From: Raillietiella orientalis
Taxonomy: Eukaryota
DNA: 64,000 nucleotides
Reading direction: 5' to 3'
NCBI GenBank assembly: GCA_036172245.1
Contig: JAYWIR010000105.1
Coordinates: 62,001-126,000 of the forward strand
The translations under genes were made by a program, and so were the position numbers. The notes beneath the pieces are model-generated. The model was not told where the DNA came from, did no database searches, and saw nothing but the letters and a program-made list of their open reading frames with translations. Position 1 is the stretch's first letter, and every line of letters begins with the position of its first letter. This document shows positions 8,477-48,799 of the stretch, in pieces.

Positions 8477-11400
8477 ACGTTGGCAGTTCCCGAGCACTGC
8501 AGGCCTTGGTCGTCGAGCAGACATGCCGCTCCTGACTGCCAGACCGGGCGCTCGGCCTTGGCCTCGTACTCCGCAAGGTACCAGACGTCCGTGCATCCAG
8601 AGAATTGGCGGGCCTGCAGAAACTCTTTGCTGTTGGCCACTCCTTCCCCGAAGCCATGACAGAGCAGGTGCAAGGAGAAACGGCTACAGAACTCGCGGAC
8701 TGATCTTTTCAGATCGTCCCAGTCCACGGGCGAAAGCGGACGGCTTTTATTTCGCTCTTCAGCGTTGGTGGTTTTATTTTTTTCTTTTTTTTCTTGGTGT
8801 GTTAGTGGATTCGGTGGTGGCTAGGCAGCCATGCCTGGGATCACCACCAATGTTAAGGAGGGAGCGAAGTCTATGTGTCCTCTTGAATCAATGGATGTGG
8901 GGGCAACCGCCCCCACAGAAGCGACTCCCTTGCTAGGGAGAAGCTGGAGTTCCGTGGCTGCGGCGCCAACGCAAGCGGCTGCGGCTGAGTTGAAAGCCTA
9001 CCTGGAGGAGGGGTACAATCCCCCACTACTCTACAAGGTAGTCAACCTTTACACCTTTGAGAGTGCACGCGCTTTCTCAAAAGCGATGCACTCCCTCAAA
9101 GTACCCCAGGAGGAGCTCTTGGCGATGGCCATCAGGAGTGGTGGACAGTACGTTCAGGTGATTTCCAAAGAAGCAAGTCTTGCCCAGCGTTTGCTCCGTA
9201 TACCTGTTTTTTTAGGGAATCGCCGGCTCTTATTAATCACGGAGGATAGATCTATCGTGATCCACCTTCTTGGAATCACCTTCCGGATGGCCCAAGAGGC
9301 TGTCCGAAAGAACTAATTGAATTTGGGACTGTCCACGCGTTGTGGAATAGGTCGACTCCGTTTTGGGGGTACGATCTCCTGAATTGCGGTGTGGCTTCCG
9401 CGTGCATCACGGTCCGCGAGGGTTGCTCTCTACCTAACGAGCTGGAGGTCAACGGCGAACCCGTTGACTTCTGGTATGTCGGTAAGCCGCATTTCTGCGG
9501 GCATTGCAGCACTTCAGGTCACCTGAAAAAAGGGTGCCCCCACTTGCAGTGCAAGCAATGCAAGCAACCCAAGCACACTCTTCCTGTGTGCCCGCAAAAT
9601 GAAGTCCGCGTCGCGTCCGCACGGAATGCGAAGAAGCGCGCGGCGAGAAAAAGAAGAGTTTAGGCAGCCCGAGAGAGAGCCGCCGCTCGAAAAACAACTA
9701 TCGTGACGCAGGTGAAGGTTAGCTCCGAGATCTTGAAAAACTCGGACAAGGTCGAGGAGAACGGCGAGAAACCTTTATGGCAAGTAGTAAAATTCAAGAG
9801 GTAGAAAAGCCTCAAGGAACCAAAAAAAAATGTCGCGAAACGCAGCGAGAATTTGCCGCGTCGCGAAAATATCAAACGCTGCTCTGTCGTCATCAAGCGC
9901 ATTCCTGCGGTCGAACCGAGCGGCAAAATTGCACTCGTCGCTGCCGACCTTCAGCCCTCCGGTAAATTAATGCCGGCGGCTATCGACCCGGCGGTGGCAT
10001 CCGTCCTCGAACGCATGCTCGATGACGTCACCTTTGAGCGAACGGAGGAGGAGCTCGCTGCGTCCTTGCAGCGTCCCCTTAAATCCGCGAAAAAGGCCTT
10101 AAGGCGTCCGACCTCGATCAAGAAGTCGGAGATTTCGATCTCTGACGCAGAGACGGAAAACACAGCCTGTGGCATCGCGGCATATCGCCCGAAGCCAATC
10201 GCACGAAGCAGGCTACCCGCATAATTATCCCGTCCGTAAAAAAGGGTTAGATAATTGAGGGAACCGAGCGTGCGTATAAAGTGGGGAACTCCGGGGACTC
10301 TCCTCGAGAGGTAACCTTACGCTGCGACCCCGGAGGGAGGGAAAGGGTAGAGTCTGTGCCCCAGATGCTTCAAGTGCCTGAGATGGCCGCGGTCCCCTTA
10401 CTCGTCCCTCCCACCTGTCCGTAGACAGGTGCTGCAACGCCACGTTCCCAGCTTTAATGCCAGAAATCGCCTCTTGCCGCCGTCTGCGGATTGCCTGTTG
10501 GAACGTCAACGGGCTAAGCGACGACGGCAAGAGACGAGACTTGGCCTTCACCCTGGCATCGTTCCACCTGGTGCTGCTGCAAGAGATCCACGTGATCTTC
10601 GCTGATCAAGCAACGAAGATCGAGCGTATCACGGGTAGACGGCTGCTATCGCGTTGCGGCACCGTCAAATCTTGCGGTGTCGCGTTCCTACTTCGTCCAG
10701 CTTTCGAGGCTGCGGCAAAGAGCGTACGGTTCGATAGTGCCGGTCGCGTCGGGCAGTTGACCATTAGGTGGTCGGACTCCATTGATCTGATCATTACCAA
10801 CGTGTACGCCCTAAGCGGCAGCGACGCAATAGGGGCAAAGGCAAGTTGAGATTGCTTCCTTACCCTGAGGCGCGAATATCTGGACGAAGCGGTAGTGCGC
10901 AAAGCGCATCTAATCGCAGGTGTCTTTAACCTGCGCCTGCTGTCAGGTGCGTGCGACACACTTCGGGACCGCATGAACGAGCTGTGCGCAGAGATGCACA
11001 CGCTTAACTTGTTTGCGGGAGATCCGGAAAGGAACGACAGCATAGATCACGTGTTTCTTGACCAGCACCTATGCTCACGCGTGGGCAGGCGCGGCAATTT
11101 ACCGTCGGAACTGTCAGACCATGACCGGATCGTACTCGAGGTGCTCCCACGCGATAGGGGTCCGCCGTCATCTGCGTGGCGCTTACCGGGGGACTAGCTG
11201 AATCTTCCGGAAGCCGCAGAGCATCTCCGCGGATTCATACGAGGTTTCAGTTTGCCGACGCTCCAGGACTGGGACCGCTTCAAGCGCTCGGTCCGGGATT
11301 TTTCCGACGAGTTCCCTATGAATCTCCTGCCTGCCGGGTTTGGTGAAAGCGTGCGTAACGAGAGATGGTATTTAAAATCTCGATGTTACGCGCGAACACC

Positions 11401-14400
11401 AGACGTACGCAGGCTAGCCGAATACCTTGCGGGAACCAAGAGGCAGGCGTGGCAGCCGGGTCGGCCAGCTTACTGGACGACCAGGACACTAAGCACTCGG
11501 CTCCCGTTCAGGTAAAAGGCTTATTAAAAAAATTCTACTTATCCCTGTACGCGCGCGCTTTACCGGAACAGGATGTTTCGCGACTTCTTCTTCCGGAAGG
11601 CGCTCCGGCGATCCGGGAGGAAGATAGAAAGACCCTCGACGAGCCTTTCACAATGGGCGAGATCATCTCGGCCATCGGAAAGCTCAAGAGGCGGAAGGCT
11701 CCAGCGAAGGACGGAATGAAAGTGGAATTTTTTTAATGTTTCCCAACAAAGCTCACTCCTCTGGTGAAGAAACTCACCTTGCTGATCCGCGAAACGGGCG
11801 ACGTCCCCGCCTCGTTTCGTTCGGCAAAGGTGCGTCTCCTCCCTAAAGGAGGAGACCTTCGGAGCATGAGCAACTGGCGGCCGATTACCGTGATAAACGC
11901 GGACGCCAAGTTGCTGGCGAAATTGTGGGCTCAACGCCTGGGGCGGTCAGCGGAAAGCTTCATTAGCCCGGAGCAGACATATGCTGTTCCTGGGCGGAGC
12001 ATGGATGCCAACCTGTTCCTCGCCAGCACCTTTTTCGCGCTCCAACAGGGAAGGGTCAGGAAGGGCAACCGGACTTCCGGAATGTCCGCCGCTAGGAAAC
12101 GGGATGGTTGGGGGGGGGAAAGATTCCTCGCAGTCGCAGTCGATTTGCATAAAGCATTCGACTGTGTCGACCAGAGGCTCCTCCTGGAGCTCCAGGAACG
12201 CTTGGGCTTCCCGGTCTCTTTGCTGACCTACCTGCGATCCTGCTGGCGCGACGCGCTCATCCAGATCTTTTTCAGTGGACACACCGTGCACGGCGTACCG
12301 GTGCGACGCGGCATACGGCAGGGAGACAGCCTGAGTCCCTTGCTCTTCAGTACCTACTTCGAGTTGGTACTGAGAGCGTACAGCGAAACTCTAGCGCACC
12401 TGCCGCGCGACTATCCCTGTACGCCCGCGGTGTCAGTATATGCAGCCGACCTACTGCTGCTGCTTCCTATGTCAACCCCGGCATCGGCGGTGGAGGAATT
12501 CTTCGACCTTCTAAGTCGGGGAACCGGGCTTGAGGTGAACAGGGCGAAGTCGTCCGTCATGCCAATCGGTGCGGCGTGGGCAGGGCAGCCGGACTGGGTC
12601 CATTTAGGGATTCCCACGGTACCGTACTTCAAGTACCTCGGTGCACCGATGGGTGATTATCTTCCTTCGGATGCGTGGTCCAGCTGCCTTCAAAAGGTAG
12701 AACGGCGATCGGCCCGTTCCAAGGCCGCAGGTTTTTCATGCCGGAACGGGCCGCGGTGTGTGACGCATTCGCGGCCCCCCTCCTCCGTTTTCTGCTTTTC
12801 GTTTGTCTTCCCACCACAGAAACTAAAAAGCGGACAAAGGACCTCCTAAGGATTGCCCTGTGGGGTAATGAGGTGCACGAGTCCACCTTGAGGACTTGAG
12901 CGCTTCGCGTCGGAACGGCGGTCTCGGCCTCCTGACGCTAGAGCGGCTGGAGCTCCAGCTCCAGTTTGGGTTACTCGCCCTAGTGGCGAAATATTGGAGT
13001 AACAGTTGGTAAGAGCCCGCACGTCTCCTCGTCGAGCAGGCTACAGGCAAGGTGGGACTGTCATCCTTTCTTGCGCTCCGTCGGCGCCGCCAAGTCGGTC
13101 ACGGCGGGTTGCAGCTGCGGACAGTGGCTGACCTGATGAGGAAGAACGCGGGATGGCTCTGCTGTCTCCCCATTAATGGACCTTCATGGCTGCAGGAAAC
13201 CGTTCAGACGTGGGCAAGGATCAACCATCAACGCACCCAAGAAGAACAGAGACAATTCTTCGCCCGTAATGACCGCCTGACGCTCCGGGAGGTCTTGGAG
13301 AGCCCCCAAAAGCAAGCGTTGAAAAGAAAAACTCCTCTATCTCAATGCTGTTTTCCCCAGTGAAATATCCTGACAGCAACGCTGCGGCGGCATAGGAAGT
13401 GAAAGCTGAAACCTTCGGTACGGAGAAATAAATTGGGCAATGGAAAACAGGGATTCCTTGAGAAACTGCTGCTTGGATAACAACCCAATTGGACTTTTGC
13501 GCTGAGGCAAGCTGCTAAATGTCACGCGGTAACAATTAAAGTGGTCCCCGGTGCTGATGAACACCTCCACCCTCCTTTTAAAATGGCAGGAGTCGGCGCT
13601 TCTGTTGCTGCATTGGGGACTCCCCTGCAACGCCCGCCGACACCATTGGACCTGGGGAGCGGTGAGCTTTAATTGTGCGAGGTGTGGAGCACAAGAGTCC
13701 CTCTCTCACCTCCTTTTGGATTGTGTGGCTCTTCGGCCCCTTTGCAACCATTTTGCCGCGGCAATCGGTATCCCCTGTGGCAATCCCAGAGACGCAGTTA
13801 GGTCCCTCTTCGTTTGCAATGCCCTTCGGCCTTCGGCCTCGTTTGCAGCCCTGTGCTGCTTTCGCAGGATCGTCGCTGCATGGAGCAAGGCAACGGGAGG
13901 ACCACGCGATATAGGTGCCGTCCAGTGCGCAGCCGAATTTATGAGGACGGCGACTGGATGGACCCATCTGGATACATCAATCATAGAACAGCTTGTTGGC
14001 ATTATAGAAAGAATTGAACGGCCCCGCAGCAGATTGTGATCCCTTCCCGTGCTCACCAGATCTTGTTTTTATATTTCCTATTTTTCATTTATTACTTATT
14101 GTTTTATCCCAACCCCCTTAATTTTCGTGGTGGACCGTACCCGACTGGGAACCGGTGAACCGGCAGACTTATTTTTGTTTGTTATTGCGTGGCTGGAACA
14201 CCAGTTTTGCCACAGTGTCTCGATTTATTCGAAACAATAAGCAACTTGGCGCAACCGGGTGAGAAGCGAGTTTACAGATGGCGAAGCCACTCAAGTGCTG
14301 GCGAAGATGCTCCGCCGCTTCCGGATTGCTAGTCCAGTCGGCCGACAACCTCCAGACATTCATCGGAGGTCCTTTGCCAGGCGGAAGATGCTCGCACTCT

Positions 14401-15430
14401 GTCTAGGATGATCCGAAATTTCGGACAGCAGACGCTCTCTTCGATCTATTTGTGAAAGCAGGTGTTCTTCGATGAGCGCATTTCCCGGAAATCTCTCCAT
14501 CCTGGGTTCACAAGCAAGCAAGTTTTAAACGCGCATACCTCGCTCAGGAGTTGCTTGTCCTTCAAGCGGCATCTTTCTTCTGTGAGCAGGTGCACGTTGA
14601 AGTCTTCTGCAAGGAGGTGCGCCACGTTGTGGCCGGAATCGGCGATCTAGAGGCTGCGCAGTTCGCCCAGGAATGCGAGTCGTTTGGCGTAATATGGGCC
14701 GCCGATCAACTCGTAGATGTTCGTAACGAACAAGTCTATTCATTCGGACCATTTGAGAGAGGGTTGAACCATACGATCTTTCTTTTCAAAACAAACGCTC
14801 CGTACCGCCTCCTTCACACTGTCCCGGACGACAAACGATACTCCGCACGTGTGTGCGGAACGCTGCCGCCAGTGTAGCGTCCCGCCCGCGCGATCTTCCG
14901 GATCCGTTGCATGCCGTTCGGATATGCTATGTATCTCCTGCAGCAGAATCAGATCGAACTCGCGCAAAGCGCTGCCTGCCGTCCGCCTTTTGTCAGCATC
15001 GGGGAAACCGTTGACGTTCCAACAGCCCACGCCGACGCGACGAGCGGACGCGAGTCCACGCATCACTGCTGCGGACATGACGGCGTGCTCCTCGCCCCGT
15101 CCGGCGAGAAGTCAGCTGGTAGCAGAGCGAATTGGGAAGCCGAATCGCTCCCGTTCACCGCCACATCGCACCCTGCTGAGTCCTGGGAGCCGAGAATCTT
15201 CGCCTCGGGCTGCGTGTAGGGGCCGGAACCGCCTCCGGCAACAAGCTCGTGCTTGCGCACATTAGCCCGGCGCGCTTGCGGGCTACCCCGGAGTGCGCGC
15301 ATTATTTGTTTGCAATCCGACTCCACCTTGGAGTCCGAATGCCTAGCGCTAGACTGGGGTTTCGCGTGTCTCTTTTGTTTTGGCAGATGGAAGCTTGCCT
15401 CGCCAGCGCGTGGGTTTCCGCAGATCATCT
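8477..15430 (-). mobile_element. LINE L-d (8477-8729 plus 14266-15430), split by L-e and cut by L-c
   Basis: ORF2 start at 15063 (WNVNG); reading ..HLSGFAICKLA at 14266 resumes as DWDDLKRSVREF at ~8725. Confidence 0.85.
8730..14265 (+). mobile_element. LINE L-e: full-length (~5.5 kb), ORF1 8831-10457 and ORF2 10457-14039 with many stops and frameshifts
   Basis: 5' GCGGACG motif, CGHCSTSGHLKKGC knuckle, APE/RT motifs, ends ccgggtg-agaa. Confidence 0.92.
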
Positions 15431-16999: not shown

Positions 17000-19900
17000 A
17001 ATCACCTGAAAAAAACAAGACGTGAATGATTTGGTGAAGTGTGAAAATCGCCAAATGCGAAGAAAAAAATTTCTCAGCAATGAACAAGCTCTTTGCGCAA
17101 CGCGAAGCCAAGCCATTCTGAAGAATCGCAATGCCTCATAGCACGGCGAGTAGTGGACGCAATTTAGTGATGAGCACTTTCACGAGCCACACGAATCCAC
17201 AAAGAATCAGGTGACTTTTCGACTGGGCGGCTTCCATACAAGTGGAAACATCCAATGGGCATTGCATGGGGAACCACAAAGGACATGAGAAAAGCAAAAA
17301 CATTCCGCGAACGAGGTCGGAATTACCAAAATAAAACGGACAGAAGAAACAACGGAGCCTGCATTTCAAAGAGAAGCAACAAAGGAAAGCACTGTGACAA
17401 AGAATGCATGAAAACTTGGAGGAAGAGAAGAAAACCATTACTTCCAATGTATGCACACTCAGAACCCGTACGCAACTGCGCACGATAGCTGGACGCATGA
17501 CAAGAGGGCACGTGAATCTCTGGAGGTCGCAGCTCAGGTTCACTGGATACGTGACTCCGAATTCCAATTCATTCGAGTCTTCTCCAGAAGCCCTCAGTAA
17601 CCAACAAGGATGGCTGCCGTGAGAGCGCAAATGGTCAGCAAAAGGACACTGCGGAACAACGCACATTCCGCAACGAGCAAGTGGATAATCTCTGAACTTC
17701 GGAGAAGACATAACAGCAGCACATACGCCATGTAAAGTTCCAGCTTCGCAAAGAAGCAATCACTTCTTTAGAGAGTACCACGTAGCTCAAGTCTATCGAG
17801 AAACTCGGCAAAACTCCGGGAAATGCTATTCAGGGGCGCGATGAACGGACGTGGAGAAGAAGCTTCCTTTCGACGGTAGCAGCGTGCGCGCCCCAGGAAG
17901 AAACATACCACATTCTCCGGCAGTTGGTATGCAAACGAACGAAGAGAAAAGGAAGCGTTCCGTATCTGTGAGGTGCGCGATGCTTGTCGACTTCGCGACG
18001 CCGGATACAACAAGCCGCACGCAGGAAGAGGAAACGCGGTCCGACCAGCGATGCAATGACTCTCTCTACTAATGCTGCTTACGATGGTGAACAAGATGCG
18101 CCACAGCATACTGCTGCCTTCCATAACTTCACACAGGACGAACGGTTTCTTGAGAACTGCATTCAGTAGAGGCGCGTACCTTCTATAGCATTTATACCGG
18201 TTTACGCACATTTCCAGCCAATCCCATCCATGGTCAACACTTGGAACGACATAACTCAAATGTGTCGAACACTCATAGTTTTATGTAGACTCGCACAGTG
18301 GTTTCGGTGATGCAATCTTAAAGTATTCCCAGCTGCATGAACGTTAGCTGCAAATCAGAGGAGCGAAGTCGCTACGAATCTGCGCTACAGAGATGCGTTT
18401 ACGAATATCGGCAATACGCCGTGTGAAGGCACGGATCACTGCAGCCTCCCAATCCGCGCTGCAAGACGGGAAAGAAACTCATGCAGCCAAGGGAAAATTC
18501 TTCCAAGATCTGCCGTTTCCACAGTAGCTTCTAACAAGAAATACCTACAAATCAAGTGATGCAAAACGAATGATCTGCGTATCATAGGAAAAAGGACCTC
18601 GTAGCTTGATAAACAAAACTACATGTCCACAGGTATAATAAACGATGAAAGGCCAACTTTATGAAGTAGGATATAGCAGCCGTTTTTTTGTTCTTTGGGG
18701 CTGCGCTGCGTCAATGTGCTTCGTAAGCTGAGCAATGCAAGATAGAGGCTTTCTTGAACGAAGACATCCTATCAGACTGTCGCAATGCTCCAAAAACATA
18801 CGTCTCAAACGTGTCCACTTCTTTCTTCGCAATTCTCGCCTACAGTCAGATTTGCTGCGAGAACACATAATCTATATCAATAATAATAATGCATCTCCCT
18901 CTCAGCGGCGTCGTCTGAGATTCAACAAACGTATGCGGAATTTCTCCAGGAGGAAGGGAAGCCATCTAGAAAGTGGGAACTCTCGGAACTTACAGGATGG
19001 CCGTCAACTTTCGAGCAGGTTTTGCGGGAATTCCGATTTTACGCTTTTTGTCCTGCGATCGCTTTTCAAATGCAGAAGCTGTGAAGCGAAGGCTTCACTG
19101 ATTGAGACGGAGTCTTCCATGAATTCAGTGACATGGTAGATTTAACCGCATTCACGAGTTGCTTTGCGTGACAGTTGAGAAACAACATACGCCAAACTTA
19201 CTTCAAGGACCAATTCTCAGTATATGTGCTGTGAACAACACTACCTATGATGCCGTTTTTCAGCACAAGCAGCATACCGTTGGTGAGCGAGCAGAAAATC
19301 TCATATTCACTGCCGATTCTGCCTGAAAAGCAGACGACAGTTGGGATGCTTCCTTCGAGATTCTAGGAAAGAACGCCACCTGCTTCGTCCCAGGATAAGG
19401 GCACATCTGCTTTTAAAGTAGCAAATCGGAAGTGGTGTAAAAGGAAGAAACCTACGGGAGTAAAGAAATAGTTATCGGAATTAAAAGAAGAAGCGGAGAA
19501 CTGGCATACAAAAACGATAGAATTAAGAAGTTCGTCGATCGAGAACGCACAAAAGAGAGCAAAAAGTTCCCGAACACGGTACTGATGGTCCCGACAGCTG
19601 GATGTGCATTTCTTGTGCACCAACCGACGATTAAGATGCTGACTTGTTCACTAAACCCGCACGGCAGCAAAGAGCTTGAAATCTCGTGTGCTCTCGTCCA
19701 GCAGTTTGGATCGGTGCGCCTACTCCTCCTCGGGATCGACAATTAGTTTGTTTAGAATCCAAGTCTTCTTTGAGGATCACTGTCATCAGCACGTGACAAA
19801 GATGCCTCCAAACGACAACTGGCGATCTCGGAAGGCTAGAAATCGTTACAAGCTATTAGTGTGGCTAAGAGTCGGTACACAAGAAGTACGCATGCCTCGT

Positions 19901-22900
19901 GCATGTAAGCGAAAGGGAACAAGGTGTCGCATCGGCGTTGACAGCATGCTGGACTGAGCATCCTCAGGACACAAACGATGCAGCGTCATCACCTGTTTCG
20001 TAAGTGTGCCCCAGCGGCCAAGTTTGCGAACACCTATATTCAGGTCCCGGCACTGATGGGCTGCAGTTTCTCTTCATCTACAGAGACCAAAAAATGCCCC
20101 GACTTGCACATTTCTACCGACAGATAGATGCCGCAGTGCTGTTCAGAGCTTAAAGAAAAAATAAGTGCTCCGTATACATTCTCATTGTCAGCTCATGCTC
20201 ATTGCTCGTTCCACCAAAGCATCCAGGGAAGAAAGAAGACGTCGTTGCCTGGAAGTAATTGAACTGCTTTTGCGAAAATTATCGTGAGGAATAGCGTAGA
20301 TAAAAACTTGACGACAAGTGGAGGCAGATCTGCTGCAGTATCGTAAGGTACACAATTCTGTTGGTTGTTTGTTTCCAGTTTCAGCTGCTTGACGCTTAAA
20401 ATCCCACCGCTGTGCCAGGAGGAGATATTTTCAAGACCGATTTAACTTGAAACCTCGTTGGCTGAAGTGGAAATGCCCGTACATTCTTTAGATAACCTCG
20501 AATGCTTCCCTTTACACGCGCGACTCGGCTTCGTGATCACGCATTCGAGCATGCCTTGCAACACACGCTTCTATCGGGTATGCAGAAAGACCAGGATTCC
20601 AGATCCTGCCGGATTGGATGAAGGGCTGCTGCTGCGGACGCTCTGTGTGTTTTGTTGTGCCAGAAATTTTTTTGGCACCGTCGACTTCTCTGCAATCGCT
20701 GAGTGTCTTGCGTGCGGAAAAGGTGAACGATGCACAACTGCTGTGAAAGAGCCACGATCGTCAGCAGTTTCGCGATTCCGCCTTTTCACTCGCATGAGCG
20801 CGTCGCTTAATGGACACCCAGGAAGACGTTCCCATTGTTTTTCTAATTTCTAGGATGAAAATGTTTTAAACGGGAGCACTTCGAACGATCTACGGTACAC
20901 CTGGTCTGACGTATTCGTCTGGCTTTCCGAATAGGAAGAGTGCAAACTCGAATTCGATGGGAACGGAGAAGACTGTCTTCGGAGCCTCGGTAGGAACAAA
21001 GGGCCACAGGACACTGTTAGTTGTTAAATCGCAGATTCCTCCGGAGAGTTTGTGATGTTTGAGATGCTGCGTGAGAACTTGAAACTCTGTGTATCTGAAG
21101 TACGAAGAAAATTGAAATCAGATGCATCTTAGAGAGTTGTTCGATCACCGTCTCATGTTAGGGAACATTAAAAAATGTGTTCCTTAATTCTTAAAGAGGA
21201 CATGCGTAAAACACATTAGAAAAAACGCACTTTCTTTGGTTTCAAAGGTCGGCTGTATAGAAAGAGAGAACCTCGCTTGAGAGCAAGTCGACCATCCCGT
21301 GGATGAGGTGTCACCTTTGCATTTTCGTAAAGTGCATAATCTTGCAAAAAACGACAGAATATTCTGGAGTTAATCATCCGGTTCTTGACAGAGTTAGTGA
21401 CCTCATCATTGTCAGACACTATTTGCTTGGATGGATTTTGAGTTGTGTGGACTACTGGTCGCCGATAGAGGATCTGAGTATCTGATTAGGCGCCGCATTC
21501 ATAAGAGTGAAAAGGGGGAGATGCCAGGCGGCTGACCATCTTGGCTCTCTCACAGCACTTGTCCATCGTGCACTTTTTCCGCATGCAAGACACTCAGCAA
21601 TTGGGGAAAAGTCCACGGAGCCAAAAAAATTTCTGGCACAACAAAACACACAGAGCGTCCGCAGCAGCAGCCCTTCATCCAATCCGGCAGGATCTGGAAT
21701 CCTGGTCTTTCTGCATACCCGATAGAAGCGTGTGTTGCAAGGCATGCTCGAATGCGTGATCACGAAGCCGAGTCGCGCGTGTAAAGGGAAGCATTCGAGG
21801 TTATCCAAAGAATGTACGGGCATTTCCACTTCAGCCAACGAGGTTTCAAGTTAAATCGGTCTTGAAAATATCTCCTCCTGGCACAGCGGTGGGATTTTAA
21901 GCGTCAAGCAGCTGAAACTGGAAACAAACAACCAACAGAATTGTGTACCTTACGATACTGCAGCAGATCTGCCTCCACTTGTCGTCAAGTTTTTATCTAC
22001 GCTATTCCTCACGATAATTTTCGCAAAAGCAGTTCAATTACTTCCAGGCAACGACGTCTTCTTTCTTCCCTGGATGCTTTGGTGGAACGAGCAATGAGCA
22101 TGAGCTGACAATGAGAATGTATACGGAGCACTTATTTTTTCTTTAAGCTCTGAACAGCACTGCGGCATCTATCTGTCGGTAGAAATGTGCAAGTCGGGGC
22201 ATTTTTTGGTCTCTGTAGATGAAGAGAAACTGCAGCCCATCAGTGCCGGGACCTGAATATAGGTGTTCGCAAACTTGGCCGCTGGGGCACACTTACGAAA
22301 CAGGTGATGACGCTGCATCGTTTGTGTCCTGAGGATGCTCAGTCCAGCATGCTGTCAACGCCGATGCGACACCTTGTTCCCTTTCGCTTACATGCACGAG
22401 GCATGCGTACTTCTTGTGTACCGACTCTTAGCCACACTAATAGCTTGTAACGATTTCTAGCCTTCCGAGATCGCCAGTTGTCGTTTGGAGGCATCTTTGT
22501 CACGTGCTGATGACAGTGATCCTCAAAGAAGACTTGGATTCTAAACAAACTAATTGTCGATCCCGAGGAGGAGTAGGCGCACCGATCCAAACTGCTGGAC
22601 GGAAACGAGATTTCAAGCTCTTTGCTGCCGTGCAGGGTTTAGTGAACAAGGAATCAGCATCTCGCATCGTCGAGTTGGTGCACAAGAAATGCACATCCAG
22701 CTGTCGGGACCATCAGTACCGTGTTCGGGACCTTTTTGCTCTCTTTTGTGCGTTCTCGATCGACGAACTTCTTAATTCTATCGTTTTTGTATGCCAGTTC
22801 TCCGCTTCTTCTTTTAATTCCGATAACTATTTCTTTACTCCCGTAGGTTTCTTCCTTTTACACCACTTCCGATTTGCTACTTTAAAAGCAGATGTGCCCT

Positions 22901-27349: not shown

Positions 27350-28104
27350 TCCCCGTGCGTCTAGGAATTCGCAAGAAAAAGTTTCCGCTGCGGTTGCGTG
27401 AGCTGTCGCTGCCGCCCTCTGCGAAAGGGAAGTTGACAACGCCGAGACCTTGAAAGAGGGATCGTCGACGGCGCCACCCTCTCTGAATGCTGGAGCAGGT
27501 TCAAGCTGCCAGCAAAAGAGCAGGTAGAAAAAACATCTATCGTAAACACGAAATTTCGACTCCGAGGTGGAGTCCGATGGCAGCTCAAAGGTTCCCTAAG
27601 TCCCTTGGAAACCCTAGCCTGCGCAAAAACGCCAAGTTTATAGGAGAAAGCATGATGCCGCGAACGGATTTTGATAATCCTTGAAGTCCAAGACAGTGTT
27701 CTTTCACTCCAGAGAGAGCGCCGCGCGCGGCGTGCAGGAGAACGAGTGCGGCTGCGCTCCCCAACATGCTGCGCTCCAGGCTGATGCCTCGCCGGACGGG
27801 GCGGGGGAAGCACCGCCATTTCCGCAGCAGTGATGAGTGGGTTCGAATCTTCTCGTGGCATTCGCATGATCTGTTTAAAAGTCAACGGGCTGCAGGTTAA
27901 TAATAATAGGCGGTTGTTGGCTCACGTATTGCGCGAAGTTCCATCTGGTCCTGCAGCTGAAGATACACGCCTTCTCCGAACAGCAAGCCGCCGATCTCTC
28001 AGGTAGGACACAGAATTAATGGCAAAGCTCACAGAATGCCTGCAGAATGTCACTTCTCGTCCGAAACAGGATGGAAGGGTAGGTGCGGAACTTCCGTTTC
28101 CATG
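27350..28104 (+). mobile_element. LINE L-f: highly decayed ORF1 end and ORF2 start
   Basis: TGATG junction at 27831 followed by RGIRMICLKVNGLQ..RRLLAHVLR (degenerate APE N-terminus); left boundary uncertain. Confidence 0.6.
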
Positions 28105-28770
28105 TTGCCACCCGGTCACGGAGGGGTATTTACTATAAACAGAACAACCGTTTCGGAACAAGGGCCTCTCAAAGGCTAACACAACAGCGAACCTGCCGGG
28201 ATGTTGGGAAGAACAACGACTTGACTCTCCACTGCAGCGGACGTGGATATGGGAAAAAACAAAAAGAAAAATGAACTAAAATTAAAAAAAAAAAAATCTC
28301 TGGAAGGTCGGTAAGGGATCTTTACCCGCTTGGTGCAAGGTGCATTTACTGCAGGATTTCGTCGGAGTCCTTCATTATATTTGTTTATAGTTGGGGCAAT
28401 CGAATTGCCATCCACATGAAGCGAACTGTATATTCGATCACGTTCCTGTCGTAGTCATCACCATCTTAGTCACATCATCTCCAGGTGGCATCAATACCGC
28501 GGAAACATCAAAACGCTGCTACAGCTACGCCTCGCTACTGTCCGTCCTACACGAAGAGGAGCCGAAACACGAATCTGGGAACCTAACGAAAATCTTCCAC
28601 GCTACGAACCAGAGTGTGCAGCCGAGAGGACTAAAGAGATGGGGCGAACAACTCGGAACCGGGCGCATGAACTGAAGTGGCCCCCGGTAATGACATGATC
28701 CAGGATTCCACCCATAAAGTGGGAAAACTTAGCACTTACGTTGTTGCATCGCGGTCTATCCTGCAATGCG
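28105..28770 (-). mobile_element. LINE L-g: short 3' fragment with an inverted upstream segment (~28575-28770 on +)
   Basis: - strand terminus ccgggtg-gcaa at 28105; + strand QPRGLKRWGE..LKWPP..LHRGLSCNA. Confidence 0.7.
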
Positions 28771-31700
28771 GTTGAACGTGAAAGAGGTGAACCTGAAAGG
28801 TCTTTCAGAGCTCAGTGGGGGTCAGCGGTTGGAGATGATTGGGACCTTTTTAAGGCCTCGGTCCGCGAGTTCTGCGAGGAGTTCCCCTTGTACCGCCTGC
28901 GTCCCGGATTTGGGGATGGGGTGCGTAACGAACGGGCGTATTTGTATGCCCGCCGTTACGCAAGGACCCCCAACATTCGTCGCCTTGCGGAGTATCGAGC
29001 CGGGACCGAACGTCAAGCCTGGCAATCCGGGTCGGCCAGCTTGCTTAACGACCAGGGCCGGGAGCACTCTCCGACTAGAATACGGCACCTCGTGCGGCGT
29101 TATTATTCTTCCCCTTACGCCAGAGCGCCACCGGACCAAGATGCCTCTCGGCGCTTGCTTCCGGACGGTGTCCCGGCAATAAGGGAGGAGGAGAAGGAAA
29201 GCCTCGACGAGCCTTTTATTATCGGCGAAATTCTCAACAGTATCAAAAAGCTCAAGAGGCGGAAAGCACGAAAGGAGGACGGCCTGCAAGCGGAGTTTTT
29301 TCAATACTTCGGGGCAGAGTTTTCACCCCTGGTGCTTTAGTTGACAAGGCTTATCCGAGACCAAGGCGATGTTCCCGCCTCGTTTCGGTCAGCCAGAGTG
29401 AGGCTCCTTCCCAAGAGAGGAGTCCTCAGAGAACTCAGCAACTGGCGTCCGATTACCATTGTGAATACAGACGCCAAGCTGATCGCCGGACTGTGGGCGT
29501 CGCGTCTAGGACAAGTGGCAGAATCCGTAATTAGCCCGGAACAGACTTACGCTGTTCCCGGGCGAAGTATGGATGCCAACCTGTTCTTCGCGAGCACATG
29601 ATTTTGCTGGCAGAGTAGTAAACATGATCGAGAGCGTGTGAGTGGCTACCCCGCTTTGGAAGCGCCGGCCGGGCAGGGAAGGGACACCGGGCCGGAGAAG
29701 GGGGCCCCTGCGATCGCGGTCGATCTGCATAAAGCGTTTGACTCCGTGGACCAGGAGCTTTTGTTGGAGCTCCTGGGTCGCATGGGCTTCCCACCCTCCC
29801 TACTAACCTACCTGCGCTCCTGCTAGCGCAACGCTATAATCAACGTCTCTTTCAGTACTCAACAAGTGTACGGCGTGCCGGTGCGACGGGGTATCAGGCA
29901 GGGCGATAGCCTTAGTCCCCTGCTCTTCAGCGCCTACTTCGAGTTGGTGCTGAGAGCATACAGGGTGACTTTGGCTGCCTTGACGAGCTCGTGCCCCGGC
30001 ACGCCCGCCGTAGCGGCTTACGCCGATGATCTTCTTCTTCTTTTGCCAATGTCCGCCCCGGCAGCCGCAGTCGAAGATTTCTTCGACCTGCTGAGTCGTG
30101 GGACGGGACTACGGGTAAATAAGGCAAAGTCATCTGTGGAAGCGGTTGGTGCGACGTGGGTCGGACGGCCTGACTGGATCGGTTTGGGGATCCCCACGGC
30201 GAGGTGCTTGAAGTACCTTGGTGTGCCGTTGGGGGACTATTCCCCTTCGGAAGCGTGGGCGGGACGTCTTCAGAAAGAAGAGATGGCGATCCGCCCGTTT
30301 TTGGAAGACAGGTTTCTCCTTCCGGAACGGGCCGCGGTGTGAAACGCGTTCGCGGCTCCCATCCTCCGCCTTCTGCTTTTTGTTTTCCCCGTCCCGCCGC
30401 ACTCGAAGAAACGGACGAAGGACCTCCTAAGGATCGCAATTTGGGGGAGAGGGAGGCCCCGAGTCCCGTAGATGGACTTGTGTGCGCCGCGTCGGGATGG
30501 CGGTCTAGGCCTCTTGACGCTGTAGCGAGTGAAGACTTGGCTGCGATGGCGTATCCTGGCCATCGCAGCGAAGTTATGGAGCACCTTTTGGTGCATTCCG
30601 GCCCGCCTCCAAGCCAGCCGTTTGTCCCGCTGCGATGAACTCGCGTCTTTTCTTCTGCGCTCAGGCCAGAAGATAAGAAGATGCGGCCTACTGCTCAAGC
30701 GCATGGTAAAATTGGTCAAGGAGAACTTCTGGATGGCATGCAGCCCCGCCAACTCTTTCGCATGTCTGGAGGAATCTGTTAAAACGTGGGCGAGGTTAAA
30801 TGCCCAAGGAGAATAAAACTTCAACTGCCTGCGATTCTACAACCGTGCCCGCTGCAGCCTCCGGACCTTCTTGCAATGTTCCGCCCGGTGCACGTGGGCC
30901 GAGACCAGGCCCCTAGCTACGGCGATGCCCTTCCTGAAGAAGGCGCTCTCCAGCAGCCGCACGCCTAGGTGTCAAGTCTACTGCCGAATCGCAGGCAGAG
31001 AGAAGAAGTTAAGCGGCTGGACCACGGTGCAACTGCCCGATGCCACTACCCGAAGTGTCCTCCCGCGTGGTTTAAAGAGATGAAGCGAGCTGCTCAGCAT
31101 CCCGATGGATGACCTGATGTGGCCCCCGGAATTTATTGGATCGAGGATCCTCCCCATGAAGTAACAGGAGTCGGCGCTTCTGCTGTTGCATTGGGGTCTA
31201 CCCAGCAACGCACGCCGCCACCACTGGACCAGGGGTCGAGTAGATCCTGCCTGCATCAGGTGTGGGGAGCGGGAAACCCTCCCCCACCTCCTTGTTGATT
31301 GCGCAGCCCTATGACCCCTGTGGGAGGGTCTTGGTAACTCCCTACGGCTGCAGGAGGACAGCCAGCCCAGAGACGTTTTTCGGCTTCTTTTCGTGCGGGA
31401 TGCACTGCGACCAGCCGCCGCCCTGGCAGCACTCTGCTGCATCCGAGGAATCGTGACAAGCTTGAGCGATTACAGAAGACCGAGCCACGAGAGGGGTGCC
31501 GTCGAACTAGCAGTCCGCTACCTGCAGCTTGCAACCAGATGGCCCCACCTGGGAATCATTCGAACGGACCTCGAGGGCATCCAGGAAAGGATGGACCCTC
31601 CTCCCAGTAAACCGTGATCCCTTTCCCCCCCTCCAAATTCTTTTTGTTTTTCTGTTTTATTTATCTTTTTGTTTTTCCCCACCCCCTTCCGCTGCCGAGC

Positions 31701-31823
31701 AGAATCGCGCCGGTCTGCGTACCGCCGACCCGGCAGGTCCTGTTGAGTTGTCCGTAGTGGGGCCTAGTACCACTAATTGTAAAGAGAATTTACATTAAAC
31801 ACCCCGGCGTGACCGGGTGGCAA
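28771..31823 (+). mobile_element. LINE L-h: short ORF1 piece joined to the 3' three-quarters of ORF2, decayed
   Basis: LSELSGGQRLE (ORF1), then DWDLFKASVREF, WRPI, QGD, YADD; ends ccgggtg-gcaa. Confidence 0.9.
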
Positions 31824-32041
31824 CGTATAGAGAGGAGTAAAATTTTTTCACTATCCCGCGTCTCTGAGCGGGAACCGAGTGCTCCCGGCTTTGGTCGTCC
31901 AGCAAGCTGGCCGACACGGATTGCCAGGCTTGCCTCTCGGCTCCCGCTCGGTATTCCGCTAGCCTGCGCATGTCGGGGGTTCTCGCGTAACGTGGGGTCT
32001 AAAGATAGCACATTTCGTTACGCGGCCCCTCCCTAAATCCC
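31824..32041 (-). mobile_element. LINE L-i: ~220 bp ORF2 remnant between two antisense insertions
   Basis: GFREG..RRLAEYRAGAERQAWQSVSASLLDDQ..FYSSLY on the - strand. Confidence 0.8.
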
Positions 32042-34082
32042 TCTCCTCCAGAGCGGACGTGTTTTTCCTGAGCTCCCGAGTGAGTCGACAGGAAGCGGTT
32101 TTTTCTTTGTGTGTGTTCGTGTGGAACATCGTTGGTGTCCGATGGCAGCGATGCCTGAGGACACCACGATGGAGGTAGGCGTGGGGGAGGCTTGCCCACC
32201 CCCACAGCCTACGGAATCAGTGGCGTCCGCCCCGGAATCGCCCTCGCCGCCCAAGGCGAGGAGCTGGAGCGCCATGGTGGCCGCGCCGAGCGCGGAAACC
32301 ATGGCAGAGATGGCGGCCTAACGGGCAGCTGGGTACAAGCCCAGCTTGGTGTACCAGGTAGGCAATCTCCTTGACGGACGTACTGCTCGCGCTTTCTCGA
32401 GGGCGCTGCAGAACGCCAACGTATTAGAAAAGGATCTTGACGGTCTATCCGTGCTCAGCGGAGGTCAGCGCGTCGAGGTTGTCTGCAAGGACATCACCTT
32501 GGCGCAAAGCTTGATTACCACCCCACTGAACGTGGACGGACGCAAGATCCTTCCAGTGACGATGGACCGCTCCGTAGTGGTCCATCTGACAGGGATCACC
32601 AGCCGCATGACGCGGTCTGCGGTAGGTGATCAGTTAAGAAAATATGGCGATGTTCACGCGCTATGGCGAAAAGCCACAATCTTCGACGGCTACGATAGCC
32701 TGTTCGGAGGGCAGGCCGCCGCGCGCGTGATGGTGAAGGAGAGTGGGCTTCCCCACAAACTAGAGGTCAATGACGAAGTCGTAGACCTCTGGTACGTGGG
32801 GAAACCCCGCTTTTGTGGCTACTGCAATGCAGTAGGACACTTGCGCAAGCGGTGCCCGAACATTGCGTGCCACTTATGCGGGGAGAAGGGCCACGTGCGC
32901 CGCGTATGCCCTAAACGCCCCACTCCGGTACCGCCTCCTGCAAAGAAAGCACAGGCAAAACGCGGAAAAATGATCGAAAGACCAAAAAGAGATACTGGCC
33001 GGCAGCAGCCGCTAGCCCCTGTTCCTCCCACACAGGCGTCGGAAGAAAAACCTTACGAAGACGCGGGACTCCAAGACGGCTGGCAGCTGGTCAAGGCCAG
33101 GAAGGAGAAAAAGGTGCCCCCCGCGGAACCCGCGAAAGCGGTCAAAAAGACAGCCGGCAAGGCGAAAAAACCTGGGCCGCGCTGCAAGACCATGCGGGAA
33201 TGTACGGTGGCACTGGAGCGCATAGCCGTTCCCGAGACTGCCACCCGGGGCGACGAGCCTTCCCACGCCGTTTCCGCCGCGCCCGAGGTTCGCGACGACG
33301 AAGCCTCTGTTTGCACAGAGGGTGAGTCGCGCGAAGCGCGCCGAAAGCGAGGACGCCGCGTTCGCGCAGGCGGCGGAGGAGCTCGCGGCCACGCTGGCCG
33401 AGCGTGAGAACCCCTCACGCAAGGCCGTGCGAAGGCCGGCTCCGCCGAAGAAGGCCCCCGCAGGTGAGTGCGACCTGGGGGCCGGAAGTGCATCCTCCTC
33501 GTAGGAGGCACCCCCCCGGAAGACGGAACGCAAGTCCCAAAAGCCGAGGAGGCGCCTCCCCTCCACGAGCGAGGAGGAGAAGCAGGAAGCCGACGGCAGC
33601 GTGGGAATCCAGGATTGGGAATCCCACGCGCGGAAGTCGCCGAGCAGGCCACCCCCATGGAGGAGGGTGAGCAGGGAGGCGAAGTCCTCCTTGCCGGCGC
33701 GGACCCTGTACCGCCCACCCGTATGGAGGAGGGCCAACAGGTAGGCGCGACCCCACCGGAGGGTGACCCGCCCGACGCCCCGTCACCGATGGAGCAGGGG
33801 GACCAGGTGCTCGAGGCACCTGTCCCTCCTGCCCCAACTAGCGTCCCGCCCCAACAGGTGGCGGACGCCGCAGAGCGGATTTCCCAGGAATAACACCTGG
33901 GCTCGCCTGTCGCCGTCGAATCCGCGTAGCCAGTTGGAACGTCAACGGGCTGCGCGACGACGGCAACAGACGAGATACGGCCGACACCCTGCGTGAGTTC
34001 AACCTGGCCCTGCTGCAGGAGATCCACGTGATCACCGCGGCAGACGCCCAGGAGATCGAGACGATCGCGGGGGGTCGGTTGT
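32042..34082 (+). mobile_element. LINE L-j: 5' end, ORF1 and ORF2 start, cut by L-k
   Basis: AGAGCGGACGTG 5' motif; CGYCNAVGHLRKRC and CHLCGEKGHVRRVC; WNVNG after 33893. Confidence 0.92.
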
Positions 34083-34290
34083 TTGTCACCCGGGTGCGCC
34101 GGGGCGTTTATTATAAACTATCCGGGAACAGGGTTCCCGGACAAAGGGTAGAACAAGAGACGAAAGGGGTGGGATCCCCGACACGCAGGTCGGTATGCCG
34201 AAAGTCCGGAACGGGAAGGAAGGGACCACAAACACACTACTATATAAAAAAATAAAAGAAAAATATGGAGGGCAGGGGACAGGGGTCTTT
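34083..34290 (-). mobile_element. LINE L-k: 3' UTR-only fragment
   Basis: - strand AATAAA-cgCCCCGGcgcacCCGGGTG-acaa and a CCGAC-ctgcgt-GTCGG hairpin. Confidence 0.8.
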
Positions 34291-35283
34291 GGTGAGTCCG
34301 TTCCTTCCTTCACCCCCCTTGCCCCAGTGCTGCCCTCCCTCAGGAAAGTTCCGGACAGCCACCAACAGGCATCGTGGGAAGTGTCCTGCCCCATCGGAGG
34401 CAGGAAAAAATCACTGAAGGCGTGGACGCCTAGGGAACTAGCGGACGCTAGTACCCCGAGTGTCCCGCCGAACGGACTTTTACGCTGGAGCGCGCTGCTC
34501 GGTATACCTCCGGAGGAGGTGAAGTGGCCCCCAGCGTCATGGGACAACGGCACCCTTCCCCTGCAGTGGCAGGAGACGGCGTTACTTCTGCTCCACTGGG
34601 GACTTTTAAGCAGAGCACGCCTGTCTCGCTGGACATGGGGGAATGTGGATGCTAGTTGTGCAGAGTGCGGGGAAAGGGAGACCTTCCCCCACTTGATTCT
34701 GGAGTGTGTTGCCCTCCACGAAATGTGGGACAGACTCTCGTCGATCCTCAACATTCCGGAGGGTGACCCAAACAATTTATTCTAACGCCTCCTGACGCGA
34801 GACGGCTTGCCAGCCTCCGGGAGCGTAGCAGTACTCTGCTGCATACGCGGTATCTTGGAGAAGTGGACCGCGTCTAGGAGAGGAAGGACCAGCCGGAATG
34901 GCATCCACTGGGCAGCGATCTCCTTGGAGAAAGCGTGCCGTTGGCGCCGACTTCAAAAACATTTGCCGGCACTTGTTCGCATCCGAAACCGGATGCAAAG
35001 GCCTGCTCACGGCGCACCGTGATCCCCTCCCTCCCTCCCCCTCCCCAAGAAACATTGCCTTCCAGACGTTTCTCTTTTTGTTTTTGTTTTCTTTTCTTTT
35101 TCCCGTCCCGGTGCCAGTGAAGGACCTTATCGGCCCCCGGGTCGGTAAGCACGAGTGCTACTGAACTTCTGAACTTAACTTCTGACGACGTAAAAAGAAA
35201 AAGTTTAACTACATAGACTTTGTTACAAAATTTTGTAATATCAAAATTTTAGTAATAAAAGCCCCGGCTTACCCGGGTGAAAA
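34291..35283 (+). mobile_element. LINE L-l: 5'-truncated 3' fragment (L-c-like lineage)
   Basis: WEVSCPIGGRKKSLKAWT, CAECGERETFPHLILEC; ends ccgggtg-aaaa. Confidence 0.9.
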
Positions 35284-36899
35284 ACCTGAGCTGGGCTGGA
35301 GCGTTCTTGGTTCTGATGGTCCAGCAAGCAGGCCGAGACTGACTGCCAGGCCTGCCTCTCCGCCTCAGCTTTGAATTCCGCCAAGCGACGGACGTCGGGA
35401 CGCCTGGAATACCGGCGGGCCTGAAGGTAGGGCGGCACGTTCCTGACCCCATCGCCGAAGCCCGGCGGAAGACGTTCCAGGGGAAACTGGTCGCAAAACT
35501 CGCGGACTGAGCACTTCATTTCGTGCCAGTCCGCGAGCGTCTCAAGATGGAATCCTCGCAGGAAGGCGCGTAGATGTTCCGCCGCTCCTGCGAGGCGCAA
35601 CCAGCCCCCTGGCAGGCGCCACGTTTTCAAGGGAGGGCCCTTATTCCGCGAATGCAATCCGAGCACGAGCCGTGGATGGTCGGACAGCTCTGCCGGGAGC
35701 GTTCCTCGAGTTCCCACCCGCGTGCACAGGTGGTTCTCGAGGAACATGTGATCGATGTTCCGATCTCTCCCGGCATCACCGGCCAACAAGTTACGCGCAT
35801 TCATTGCTGCGCACAACTCGTTCACCAGTTGTGCTCGACTGCTGGGCGCACCTGCAAGCAGGCGGAGATTGAAGTCGCCCGCGATGAGGTGCGCCCGCCC
35901 TACGCTTGCTTCAGCCAACCAGTCTCGCCTCAGGGATTCGAAGAACGCAGTGCGTTCCTCGGCCCTGTGGCTGCTCACCGGAGCGTACAGGTTCGTCACC
36001 ACGAAATCGATCGAGTCAGAACACTTGAACGCAAGCTGCCCAACTCGACCGTCCTCGTCAAACCTGACGCTGCGCAGTGCGTTGTCGACGGATGGCTTCA
36101 GCATAAAGGCCACTCCGCAGGAGCGGTCGTTTCCGTTTCTCCACAGTAGCCGCCCTCCCGCGATTCTTTCCATTTCCTGGACATCTCCCGGTCGGAGAAC
36201 GTGCGTCCCTTGCAGGAGCACCAGGTCGAAGTCTCGCAGTATGGCGGCTACATCTCGCCTCTTTCCGTCGTCGCGCAACCCGTTGACATTCCAACAGGTG
36301 ATGCGCAAGCGGCGGCAGAAGGCGAGCCCACGCACTGATGCGTTTATTGTGGGGTGGAGGCGGCCTCCTCCCTTGCGGGAGGCGGCTTGTTGGCGGCCGT
36401 GACGACGGTCGGCTGCTCACACGGGAGCACGTCGTCCACAGCGACTTCCATGAGGCTGGCTTCCGAGACACGGATCGGAGAGGGGTCGCGTGGCGCGACG
36501 CACATTGCCTCCTCCTCCGTGCCCAAGGACATGGCATCCTCCACCTGCGGAGGGGCGACCAGTCTCGGGCAACCGGTCTTCTTGCCAGCTTTCCTCTTCG
36601 GCACGGCTGCGGAAGTAGAACAACAGGCTTCGGTTTCGGACTCGGAATTTTCCGGGCCCTTCACCGTTGCCGGTCGTCTCAAGGCCTTCTTTTCGGCCTT
36701 CGCAGGCCGCCTGAACATGGCTGCCAGCTCTTCCGCGGCCTGCGCGAAGGTCGCGTCCGTTATGCGCGCCGCCTCCTCACTTTCCGCACCGACGTTTGCG
36801 CAGGCGCGACAGGGGCGGCTTCATCGATCGGCGCGCAGACGTCCTTCGCTGGCAATGCCGGAACGGCATTGTCGTCAGCTAATGGTGACGTCACTGCGG
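35284..36899 (-). mobile_element. LINE L-m: ORF1 3' part plus ORF2 APE region
   Basis: ORF 35241-36335 carries the APE motifs; ORF1 tail 36344-36718. Confidence 0.92.
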
Positions 36900-41388: not shown

Positions 41389-41400
41389 TCGCCGAAAGCC

Positions 41401-48397: not shown

Positions 48398-48788
48398 TTT
48401 TCACCCGGATATGCCGGGGCATTTATTCAAAAGAATAAAATCACAATGGATTGTCGCATGGTGAACCCAAAGGTCCACCACTACAAAACAGCTTGGTATT
48501 TACGGGCGCTATGCCGTAGAGGTCCATCCGATCCGCGGGGGTTGGGAAAGAACAAAACAAAAAACAAACAAATAGTTGAAGTATGGGAGGGAGCAAATGT
48601 TTCGGGAATGGGAGGGCAGGGAGGGGATCACCGTGCGGGCGAATAGGTCCTCTAGATCCTATTTAGGATCCGTACAAGCTGAGTCCTCTCTGCGCCCAAG
48701 TGGCGCCACTTGCAGACGTCTCGGACGAATAGGCGGGTGAACCGTAAGGCGTTGCCAGTTGGCTGACGTCTTCTTCTGGTGGCGTTCC
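48398..48788 (-). mobile_element. LINE L-q: 3' fragment of the L-n subfamily abutting the satellite
   Basis: NATRRRRQPTGNAL..RILNRI* matches the L-n C-terminus; terminus ccgggtg-aaaa at 48398. Confidence 0.9.
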
Positions 48789-48799
48789 TAGAGTTCTGA

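Follow-up and report, generated by a model that had tools for sequence, protein, structure and literature searches.

Zepp in Chlorella and Coccomyxa and ZeppL in Chlamydomonas are long interspersed nuclear elements (LINEs) of the L1 type that occur in clusters of nested copies at putative centromeres. Zepp carries poly(A), and the elements described here are without it. Self-nesting LINE islands of this kind are thought to form centromeres in some algae and plants, although the way in which such elements locate one another has yet to be established. Reports on Zepp give a GC content of 61% for Zepp against 53% for the genome (PMC3446292), and describe nesting that leads to tandem arrays mostly of 3' ends (PMC8226300). 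The locus analysed here, a window of 64,000 nucleotides (nt) from Raillietiella orientalis (assembly GCA_036172245.1, contig JAYWIR010000105.1, positions 62,001 to 126,000 of the forward strand), contains about 18 pieces, named E1 to E18, of one family of retrotransposons that lack long terminal repeats (non-LTR retrotransposons), as judged from tblastn maps and inspection of the ends. Zepp/ZeppL is the closest known system, sharing nested clusters of one L1-type family and a GC content above that of the surroundings, and differing in that 9 of 11 joins are antisense here and full-length copies are present. Within this island two related lineages, L-c and L-l, adjoin resident members of their own family at the same bond of the second open reading frame (ORF2), and another pair of close relatives, E13 and E14, re-uses a second bond; the reading preferred here, with a probability of roughly 0.6, is a lineage-specific preference for the nick site during target-primed reverse transcription, in a self-targeting L1-like family.

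Target-specific LINEs with an APE-type endonuclease, which include R1, TRAS/SART and the Tx1 group (Tx1L, Keno, Mutsu), insert with their 3' end joined precisely to a single bond of a target that is present in many copies, in a fixed orientation and with short pairing between target and RNA, and the target of Tx1L is another transposon. The elements of the window may resemble them in the exact bond and in a short pairing between the target end and the RNA end, and differ from them in that the target is the coding sequence of their own family, that several sites are used according to the lineage, and that the DNA at the cut is poorly conserved. With human LINE-1 they share the domain order, the best structural relatives, a presumed target-primed reverse transcription, target duplications, 5' truncation and microhomology, whereas poly(A) and a TTTT/AA-type target are lacking, and a terminal stem followed by ..AAC and a strong preference for the own family are found instead. 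Celine from poplar is centromeric, lies in a repeat-rich domain, is often nested in retroelements and produces duplications of 10-30 bp (PMC11288735); each copy has its own target duplication, the preference for AAGA/AATA is loose, and nesting occurs mainly in LTR elements (PMC11288735). The repeat-rich domain and the nesting are common to Celine and the present locus, where duplications are of about 12 and 22 bp; in contrast to Celine, the same bond is re-used here and the hosts are relatives of the insert. What sets the present locus apart is that the family is hit within its own ORF2, in antisense and at several sites, and that sister lineages return to exactly the same bond; exact lineage-specific sites inside an element's own ORF2 were not found described in the literature searched, the scope of which did not extend to the primary Zepp papers.

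The two inserts and their hosts are as follows; H1, the host of L-c, consists of E4 and E6, H2, the host of L-l, is E11, the sign ^ marks a cut, and amino-acid (aa) positions of cuts follow the ORF2 numbering of E14.

6305..8478, plus strand: L-c (E3), reverse transcriptase (RT) starting at the KAFDCVDQ motif and continuing through the C-terminus, 3' untranslated region (UTR), degenerate hairpin, tail GACAAAC
8477..8737, minus strand: E4, downstream fragment of H1, linker between endonuclease (EN) and RT, about aa 296-381, ending A-N^V at the L-c tail
14268..15111, minus strand: E6, upstream part of H1, covering EN as far as about aa 296, with E1 as closest relative
34290..35285, plus strand: L-l (E9b), C-terminal ~235 aa of ORF2, 3' UTR, hairpin, tail GAAAAAC
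35284..36898, minus strand: E11 (H2), C-terminus of ORF1, complete APE endonuclease, linker, ending A-Q^V at the L-l tail

The tail of L-c ends at 8476-8478 and that of L-l at 35283-35285 (plus strand), and both adjoin minus-strand LINE copies. On its sense strand, H1 reads ...GGA ACT GCC AAC^GT-TTGTCACCCGG from window position 8486 down to 8466, where TTGTCACCCGG is the reverse complement of the L-c tail, and H2 reads ...CCA GCT CAG^GT-TTTTCACCCGG from 35294 down to 35273, on the side of the L-l tail. The GT (8477-8478; 35284-35285) is ambiguous, belonging either to the valine codon of the host or to the terminal AC of the tails GACAAAC and GAAAAAC; since the ambiguity concerns the same 2 nt in both joins, the two cuts coincide under any convention. 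This GT of the valine codon is present in four of six uninterrupted copies (E1, E5, E12, E14). Counted from the first base of the block that codes for AERQAWQS, the cut lies 78 nt downstream, with no insertion or deletion (indel) in between, and the 60 codons before it align gap-free in all seven copies compared. An earlier interpretation of the window, referred to here as the sequence-only reading, had claimed the same codon and the same base for both interruptions, and the joins, read directly with their identical 2-nt ambiguity, confirm it. The sequence-only reading also suggested a position measured from the WQS..ACLLD.Q block. This WQS block (-78..-54), with 19 of 24 nt identical between the hosts, is the best conserved DNA nearby; as the spacing from block to cut is the same in every copy, a distance counted from the block and a local position are inseparable.

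At the corresponding place E12 (39662-39667) reads CAG^GTAAGC and E5 reads CAG^GTAAAA, both similar to a 5' splice site. The idea of a splice donor as the target was rejected, since the other cut sites are unlike donors, and the likeness is taken as a by-product of Gln-Val codons.

The INDEPENDENCE of the two events was assessed for the inserts and for the hosts. Over 806 nt of coding sequence L-c and L-l share 69.7% identity (126 of 226 aligned residues), with third positions differing most (0.47 against 0.35 and 0.24) and a ratio of nonsynonymous to synonymous change (dN/dS) of 0.27 over 224 codons, while in their 3' UTRs, apart from the hairpin, no more than 89 nt can be aligned. In a tree of the C-terminal ~235 residues of eight copies they are sisters (97/97), with E12 next (94/97), and both carry the motifs WEVSC.I.GRKK.LKAWT and WT.GNVDA.C on which their relatedness had been proposed. 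The hosts H1 and H2 are 65.4% identical over 228 nt (45 of 89 residues), and over 89 codons the proportions of nonsynonymous and synonymous differences are 0.30 and 0.72 (pN/pS 0.42, with dS saturated), a difference of about 6 standard errors by our own arithmetic. In a comparison of seven copies the nearest kin of the hosts are found elsewhere, H1 with E1 (76% nt) and H2 with E12 (87% nt), and the hosts themselves share only 60%. Judged from these substitution patterns, inserts and hosts have each diverged under purifying selection, and L-c and L-l are two independent insertions, made by sister lineages in hosts of different lineages; the sequence-only reading, which had pointed to many synonymous changes between the inserts, to hosts of different subfamilies and to independent insertions, is upheld in these respects.

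These comparisons also bear on the alternative that a single ancestral junction, tail and host together, was copied as dead DNA or by 3' transduction and subsequently drifted. The insert pair and the host pair are about equally diverged (69.7% and 65.4% nt), as that alternative expects, and neutral, equal divergence is what the sequence-only reading had named as evidence against itself; the divergence is indeed similar but non-neutral. A copied dead junction should show neutral change and hosts that are mutual nearest kin, neither of which is seen, and similarity drops sharply from the coding parts to the UTRs; this explanation is hardly credible.

The second re-used bond lies in another host, H3, whose upstream and downstream halves are E15 and E12, and the copies around it, together with a related copy and its neighbour, are as follows.

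36899..39839, minus strand: E12, downstream half of H3, beginning with the GFG codons and ending in the tail GTCAAC, which adjoins the 5'-truncated E11 in the same orientation
39840..41390, plus strand: E13, 5'-truncated, E14-like, tail GGCATC joining H3 at GFGD^ (aa 326/327)
41391..41409, minus strand: piece of H3 of 19-22 nt with the codons PTPAFGD, flanked by the tail of E13 and the 5' end of E14
41410..47052, plus strand: E14, full-length, 5' end GGACGTG..., ORF1, ORF2 in two long frames, tail GGCATC at GFGD^ of H3
47053..48396, minus strand: E15, upstream half of H3, C-terminus of ORF1, EN, linker to GFGD
31825..32054, minus strand: E8, linker fragment, aa ~319-394, third host type, nearest to E7 (72% nt), between the E7 tail and the E9a 5' end
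32055..34081, plus strand: E9a, E14-like, 5' UTR, ORF1, EN to aa 94

Both halves of H3 are close to E11, E15 with 90.0% identity over 1343 nt and E12 with 87.8% over 180 nt. E13 and E14, which lie between them, are sister copies (83% aa, UTRs 90%), and both tails (GGCATC) join H3 after GGT/C GAT, codons of GFGD, between aa 326 and 327. E12 restarts at GGGCTTCGGTGA, which gives nested target duplications of ~12 bp for E13 and ~22 bp for E14, the 19-22 nt of H3 at 41391..41409 being the target-site duplication of E14; the nesting makes E13 and E14 separate events. The middle copy of the duplication differs from E15 at 5 of about 22 nt, which is above expectation and is attributed to small numbers. 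As a second independent pair at one bond, E13 and E14 support the fixed position that had been proposed from L-c and L-l. A third member of this clade may have behaved alike. In EN, E9a shares 88% identity with E14 (60% with the next best copy), and its 5' end is found 14 nt upstream of the GF codons in E8, which represents another subfamily of hosts; from this arrangement we infer that the nick for its tail was at GFG[DE]^ and that ~26 bp were duplicated, the tail of E9a being outside the view. E8 is uninterrupted across the AQ site. Joining E9a and E13 into one element flanked by a duplication was rejected, as the flanks match at only ~7 of 15 nt by eye.

A further clean insertion, at a different position, is that of E5 in H1.

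8738..14267, plus strand: E5, full-length, 5' end GGACGG..., ORF1, ORF2 with frameshifts, tail GAGAAGC, antisense in H1 between E6 and E4

The translation of E6 ends ...AICKL and that of E4 resumes ...(L)SPVDWDDL, to be compared with ...AISEL-EDWDDL in E1, and the target duplication of E5 is of 0-4 bp (GCTT microhomology). E6 and E4 are contiguous halves of one host that has been cut twice, by E5 and by L-c.

Every one of the 11 tails in the window adjoins LINE DNA, in antisense in nine cases (one-sided binomial 0.033, own arithmetic) and in the same orientation in two. The nine antisense joins, with the insert named before the host and the position of the cut in the host ORF2, are:

E1 into E2: aa 86, antisense
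E10 into E9a: aa 94, antisense
E17 into E18: aa ~124, antisense
E5 into H1: aa ~296, antisense
E13 into H3: aa 326, antisense
E14 into H3: aa 326, antisense
L-c into H1: aa 381, antisense
L-l into H2: aa 381, antisense
E7 into E8: aa 394, antisense

All nine cuts fall within 925 nt, from EN to the start of RT (aa 86-394), and the junctions show a bias in orientation and region. By clade, the L-c/L-l tails are at AQ^V in 2 of 2 cases and the E14-like tails at GFGD^ in 2 of 2, plus the one inferred, while the other lineages are represented by one tail each. The sequence-only reading had regarded scattered sites among other copies of the lineage as the observation that would weaken it; it withstands this check only in part, since both tails of the L-c/L-l clade proper are at one site but neighbouring lineages use other sites, at aa 86, 94, ~124, ~296, 326 and 394.

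The main competing explanation retains this regional preference only, that is, antisense insertion in the EN-to-RT stretch, and regards the match of L-c and L-l as a coincidence aided by the microhomology used in priming. Its weight depends on how often such matches arise by chance, and a simulation of 8 junctions placed at random on one strand of the 925-nt stretch, run before the ninth junction was found and post hoc as a test, gave at least one exact coincidence in 3.0% of trials, a frequency that is not negligible for a post hoc test, and at least two in just 0.03%; with the whole element and both strands the figure was 0.2%, and with nine junctions one coincidence would be expected in ~4% (own arithmetic). 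A requirement for GT beside the nick leaves fewer eligible positions, six other positions are used by other lineages, and the hosts are barely identical next to the cut, all of which suit a merely regional preference. Nevertheless, the dinucleotide GT is common and cannot fix one position in 925 nt, the window holds two exact coincidences, both between copies that are sisters on the tree, and E13 and E14 are separate events by their nested duplications; chance matching within a preferred region is judged rather improbable.

Under the preferred reading, of a nick-site preference that differs between lineages, new copies would enter resident relatives by target-primed reverse transcription and thereby build the nested island. 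The sense strand of the resident copy would be nicked within a region of ~0.9 kb that begins in the endonuclease and ends where RT starts, and its 3' end would prime the cDNA after pairing with the final 1-4 nt of the incoming RNA; nicking and priming on the host sense strand would leave the newcomer antisense to its host. In agreement with this scheme, tail and host can overlap by 1-4 nt, namely GT (L-c, L-l), GATG (E13, E14), GCTT (E5), GATT (E1) and GTT (E10), overlaps that point to priming by short pairing, and the host base after the cut, where it is known or can be deduced from relatives, is mostly G, matching the terminal C of the RNA. Closely related newcomers would then re-use the same phosphodiester bond, L-c and L-l at A-[N/Q]^V and E13 and E14 at GFGD^, the shared preference of L-c and L-l being presumably set by what their endonuclease recognises.

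The same junctions could also be read with the roles reversed, or as joins made during synthesis, in which case the host would lack its 3' half: the host could have been primed from an existing tail at an internal GU, or the enzyme could have switched from the host DNA to a second LINE RNA. The downstream half of the host is in fact absent for four of the seven antisense inserts that can be judged (L-l, E7, E10, E17), there are two look-alike triplets, each with a plus-strand copy cut in EN, a minus-strand 3' piece and a plus-strand C-terminal piece, and two same-orientation joins of a tail to a truncated copy suggest that template jumps occur. Against these stand E5, E13 and E14, ordinary insertions in this very stretch and orientation, for which duplications and both halves of the host are seen; in addition, the host RNA offers only GU to the tail end, so that internal priming would not choose this site, and a single later deletion can account for each missing half. 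A reversal of roles, or a join made during synthesis, is distinctly unlikely.

The triplets occupy 32055-35285 and 27780-28770, the short minus-strand 3' fragment carrying its tail in each and the C-terminal fragment coming from another lineage; deletion at insertion, later deletion or template jumps could explain them and the missing host halves. The same-orientation joins, at 36899 (E12 to E11) and 48397 (E16 to E15), consist of a complete tail and, directly next to it, a copy whose truncation falls in the C-terminal part of ORF1, with the truncation points of E11 and E15 roughly 60-80 nt apart, and could result from template jumping during reverse transcription.

Several observations weigh against the interpretation of a lineage-specific nick-site preference. 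Numbers are small, with two events at AQ^V and two seen plus one inferred at GFGD^, in a single 64-kb window, and no motif common to the different cut sites is evident among the junctions in it. The 12 nt upstream of the cut (-12..-1) are identical at only 5 of 12 positions between H1 and H2, in line with the little identity that the sequence-only reading had reported there. E7 and E17 share the tail GGCAAC, and their UTRs are 68% alike, yet they cut at aa 394 and aa ~124, respectively, and E10 has the tail letters of L-c but sits at aa 94. The L-c and L-l events are documented by 3' junctions only, and neither insert carries its endonuclease within the window. The other half of the host is seen for only three of the nine antisense inserts (E5, E13, E14) and is missing from its expected place for L-l, E7, E10 and E17, all of them 5'-truncated; for L-c and E1 the expected place is beyond the window. 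Finally, the terminal stem, conserved as it is, is not stabler than shuffled sequence (z -0.09 to -1.01).

A stronger form of the proposal, in which every lineage would have acquired a landing site of its own, exact to the nucleotide and placed within the EN-to-RT stretch on the sense strand of ORF2 in its relatives, is possible but doubtful. If it were true, the family would live by antisense self-insertion, a self-made safe haven that grows the LINE island beside the satellite bordering it. Targeting might also be guided by homology, the incoming RNA pairing with a resident copy and displacing the sense strand, which would then be nicked and used as the primer; such a process would account for insertion into the own family, for its antisense orientation as a rule and for the poor conservation of the DNA at the cut. 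Whatever its basis, the presence of two bonds, each re-used by close lineages, supplies concrete, testable target sites and suggests that lineages close to each other can change their choice of target. Confirmation across the genome would provide a natural series of APE-type endonucleases with differing narrow specificities, together with a simple account of island building.

The GC content is 0.53-0.63 at window positions 1-15,100 and 27,780-48,800, against 0.42 in the flanks, and these GC-rich parts are the LINE pile. In the ORF2 of these elements, Pfam searches detect an APE-type endonuclease (PF03372, Exo_endo_phos, E 1.4e-14 in E11), an RT (PF00078, RVT_1, E 1.2e-20) and a C-terminal Cys-rich zf-RVT (PF13966, 27.9 bits at a cut-off of 27.5), and in the ORF1 of E9a a zf-CCHC (21.6 bits at a cut-off of 20.8); the translations show two CCHC knuckles. 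The best solved relative of the RT part is human LINE-1 ORF2p (E 1.8e-39), with R2 at 1e-14 or weaker, and its neighbours in the protein atlas are L1 ORF2 clusters; for the endonuclease, the PDB matches are L1 EN and exonuclease III. On these matches, the elements are classified as L1-like APE-type non-LTR retrotransposons. The full-length copies E2, E5, E9a and E14 begin with GGACG(T)G and a T-rich stretch, and the element is ~5.9 kb long. All 11 of the 3' ends have AATAAA-like letters, a stem of CCCGG, loop and CCGGG, followed by TG and a further 4-7 nt that close with ..AAC, ..ATC or ..AGC, with the stem degenerate in L-c and E5; no poly(A) or A run was found in any of the 11 tails, an absence compatible with the L1-like superfamily, since poly(A) varies among L1-like clades. 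Protein searches for relatives gave two for EN plus linker and none for short proteins across the junction region. A scan of metagenome contigs for the pattern of the terminal hairpin gave 118 loci, which are regarded as chance matches because none of the 118 showed LINE homology by tblastn.

The remaining pieces of the island, in the order of the window, are:

1..4428, plus strand: E1, the most divergent lineage, running off the window start; tail GAGA(AAT) joining E2 in antisense at AQEI^ (aa 86/87)
4429..6304, minus strand: E2, full 5' end (GGACGTAA...), ORF1, EN as far as aa 86
27780-28103, plus strand: E18, decayed EN to aa ~124, antisense join to the E17 tail
28104-28570, minus strand: E17, C-terminus and 3' UTR, tail GGCAAC, UTR 68% similar to that of E7
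28837..31824, plus strand: E7, ORF2 from aa ~300 to the tail GGCAAC, which joins E8 at FYSSLY^A (aa 394/395)
34081..34290, minus strand: E10, fragment of 3' UTR only, tail GACAAAC, antisense join to E9a at AGGRL^ (aa 94/95)
48397..48800, minus strand: E16, short 5'-truncated copy between the satellite and E15, tail GAAAAC adjoining the 5'-truncated E15 in the same orientation

The left edge of L-c, which carries a frameshift near 7720-7745, meets the full 5' end of E2, and L-c was therefore probably interrupted there and not truncated. L-l has one in-frame stop at 34783-34785, and its approximate 5' edge is head to head with E10. Uniting E9a and E9b (L-l) in one element was rejected, as E9a is 88% identical to E14 in EN, while for the C-terminus of E9b the identity is 42% with E14 and 61% with L-c. 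Likewise, E10 was rejected as the 3' end of H2, which would need a 3-kb deletion at the insertion of L-l, because its UTR shares only the hairpin with the UTR of the E12/E16 type. E14 (41410-47052) looks nearly intact, with ORF1 and an ORF2 that a short break near 44901-44958 splits into two long frames of 579 and 622 codons, and may be a recently active copy.

In a contig of sequencing run X1, 47062 and 41389 are joined through a single intervening letter, the same arrangement of tail, short flank and 5' end as at the E13/E14 site. The word share of this run is 0.06, and its contigs were placed at a likeness of at least 80%, mostly below 90%. They yielded only homologous bridges between copies (e.g. 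29183/31824 and 32051/44126), which served as coordinate checks, and no conclusion is drawn from the run.

Between the two GC-rich parts, a palindrome occupies 17069-25229, with arms 17069-19624/22674-25229 and 19695-20811/21485-22601 that are 98% and 97% complementary, respectively, around a centre of 673 nt; it is AT-richer than the LINEs, and its long ORFs match no family searched. On the other side, a satellite at 48802-64000, with a 277-bp unit in 55 copies and 90% matches, extends for more than 15 kb to the window end and borders the LINE island directly, with E16 at the edge; the satellite-LINE region may be centromeric or pericentromeric.

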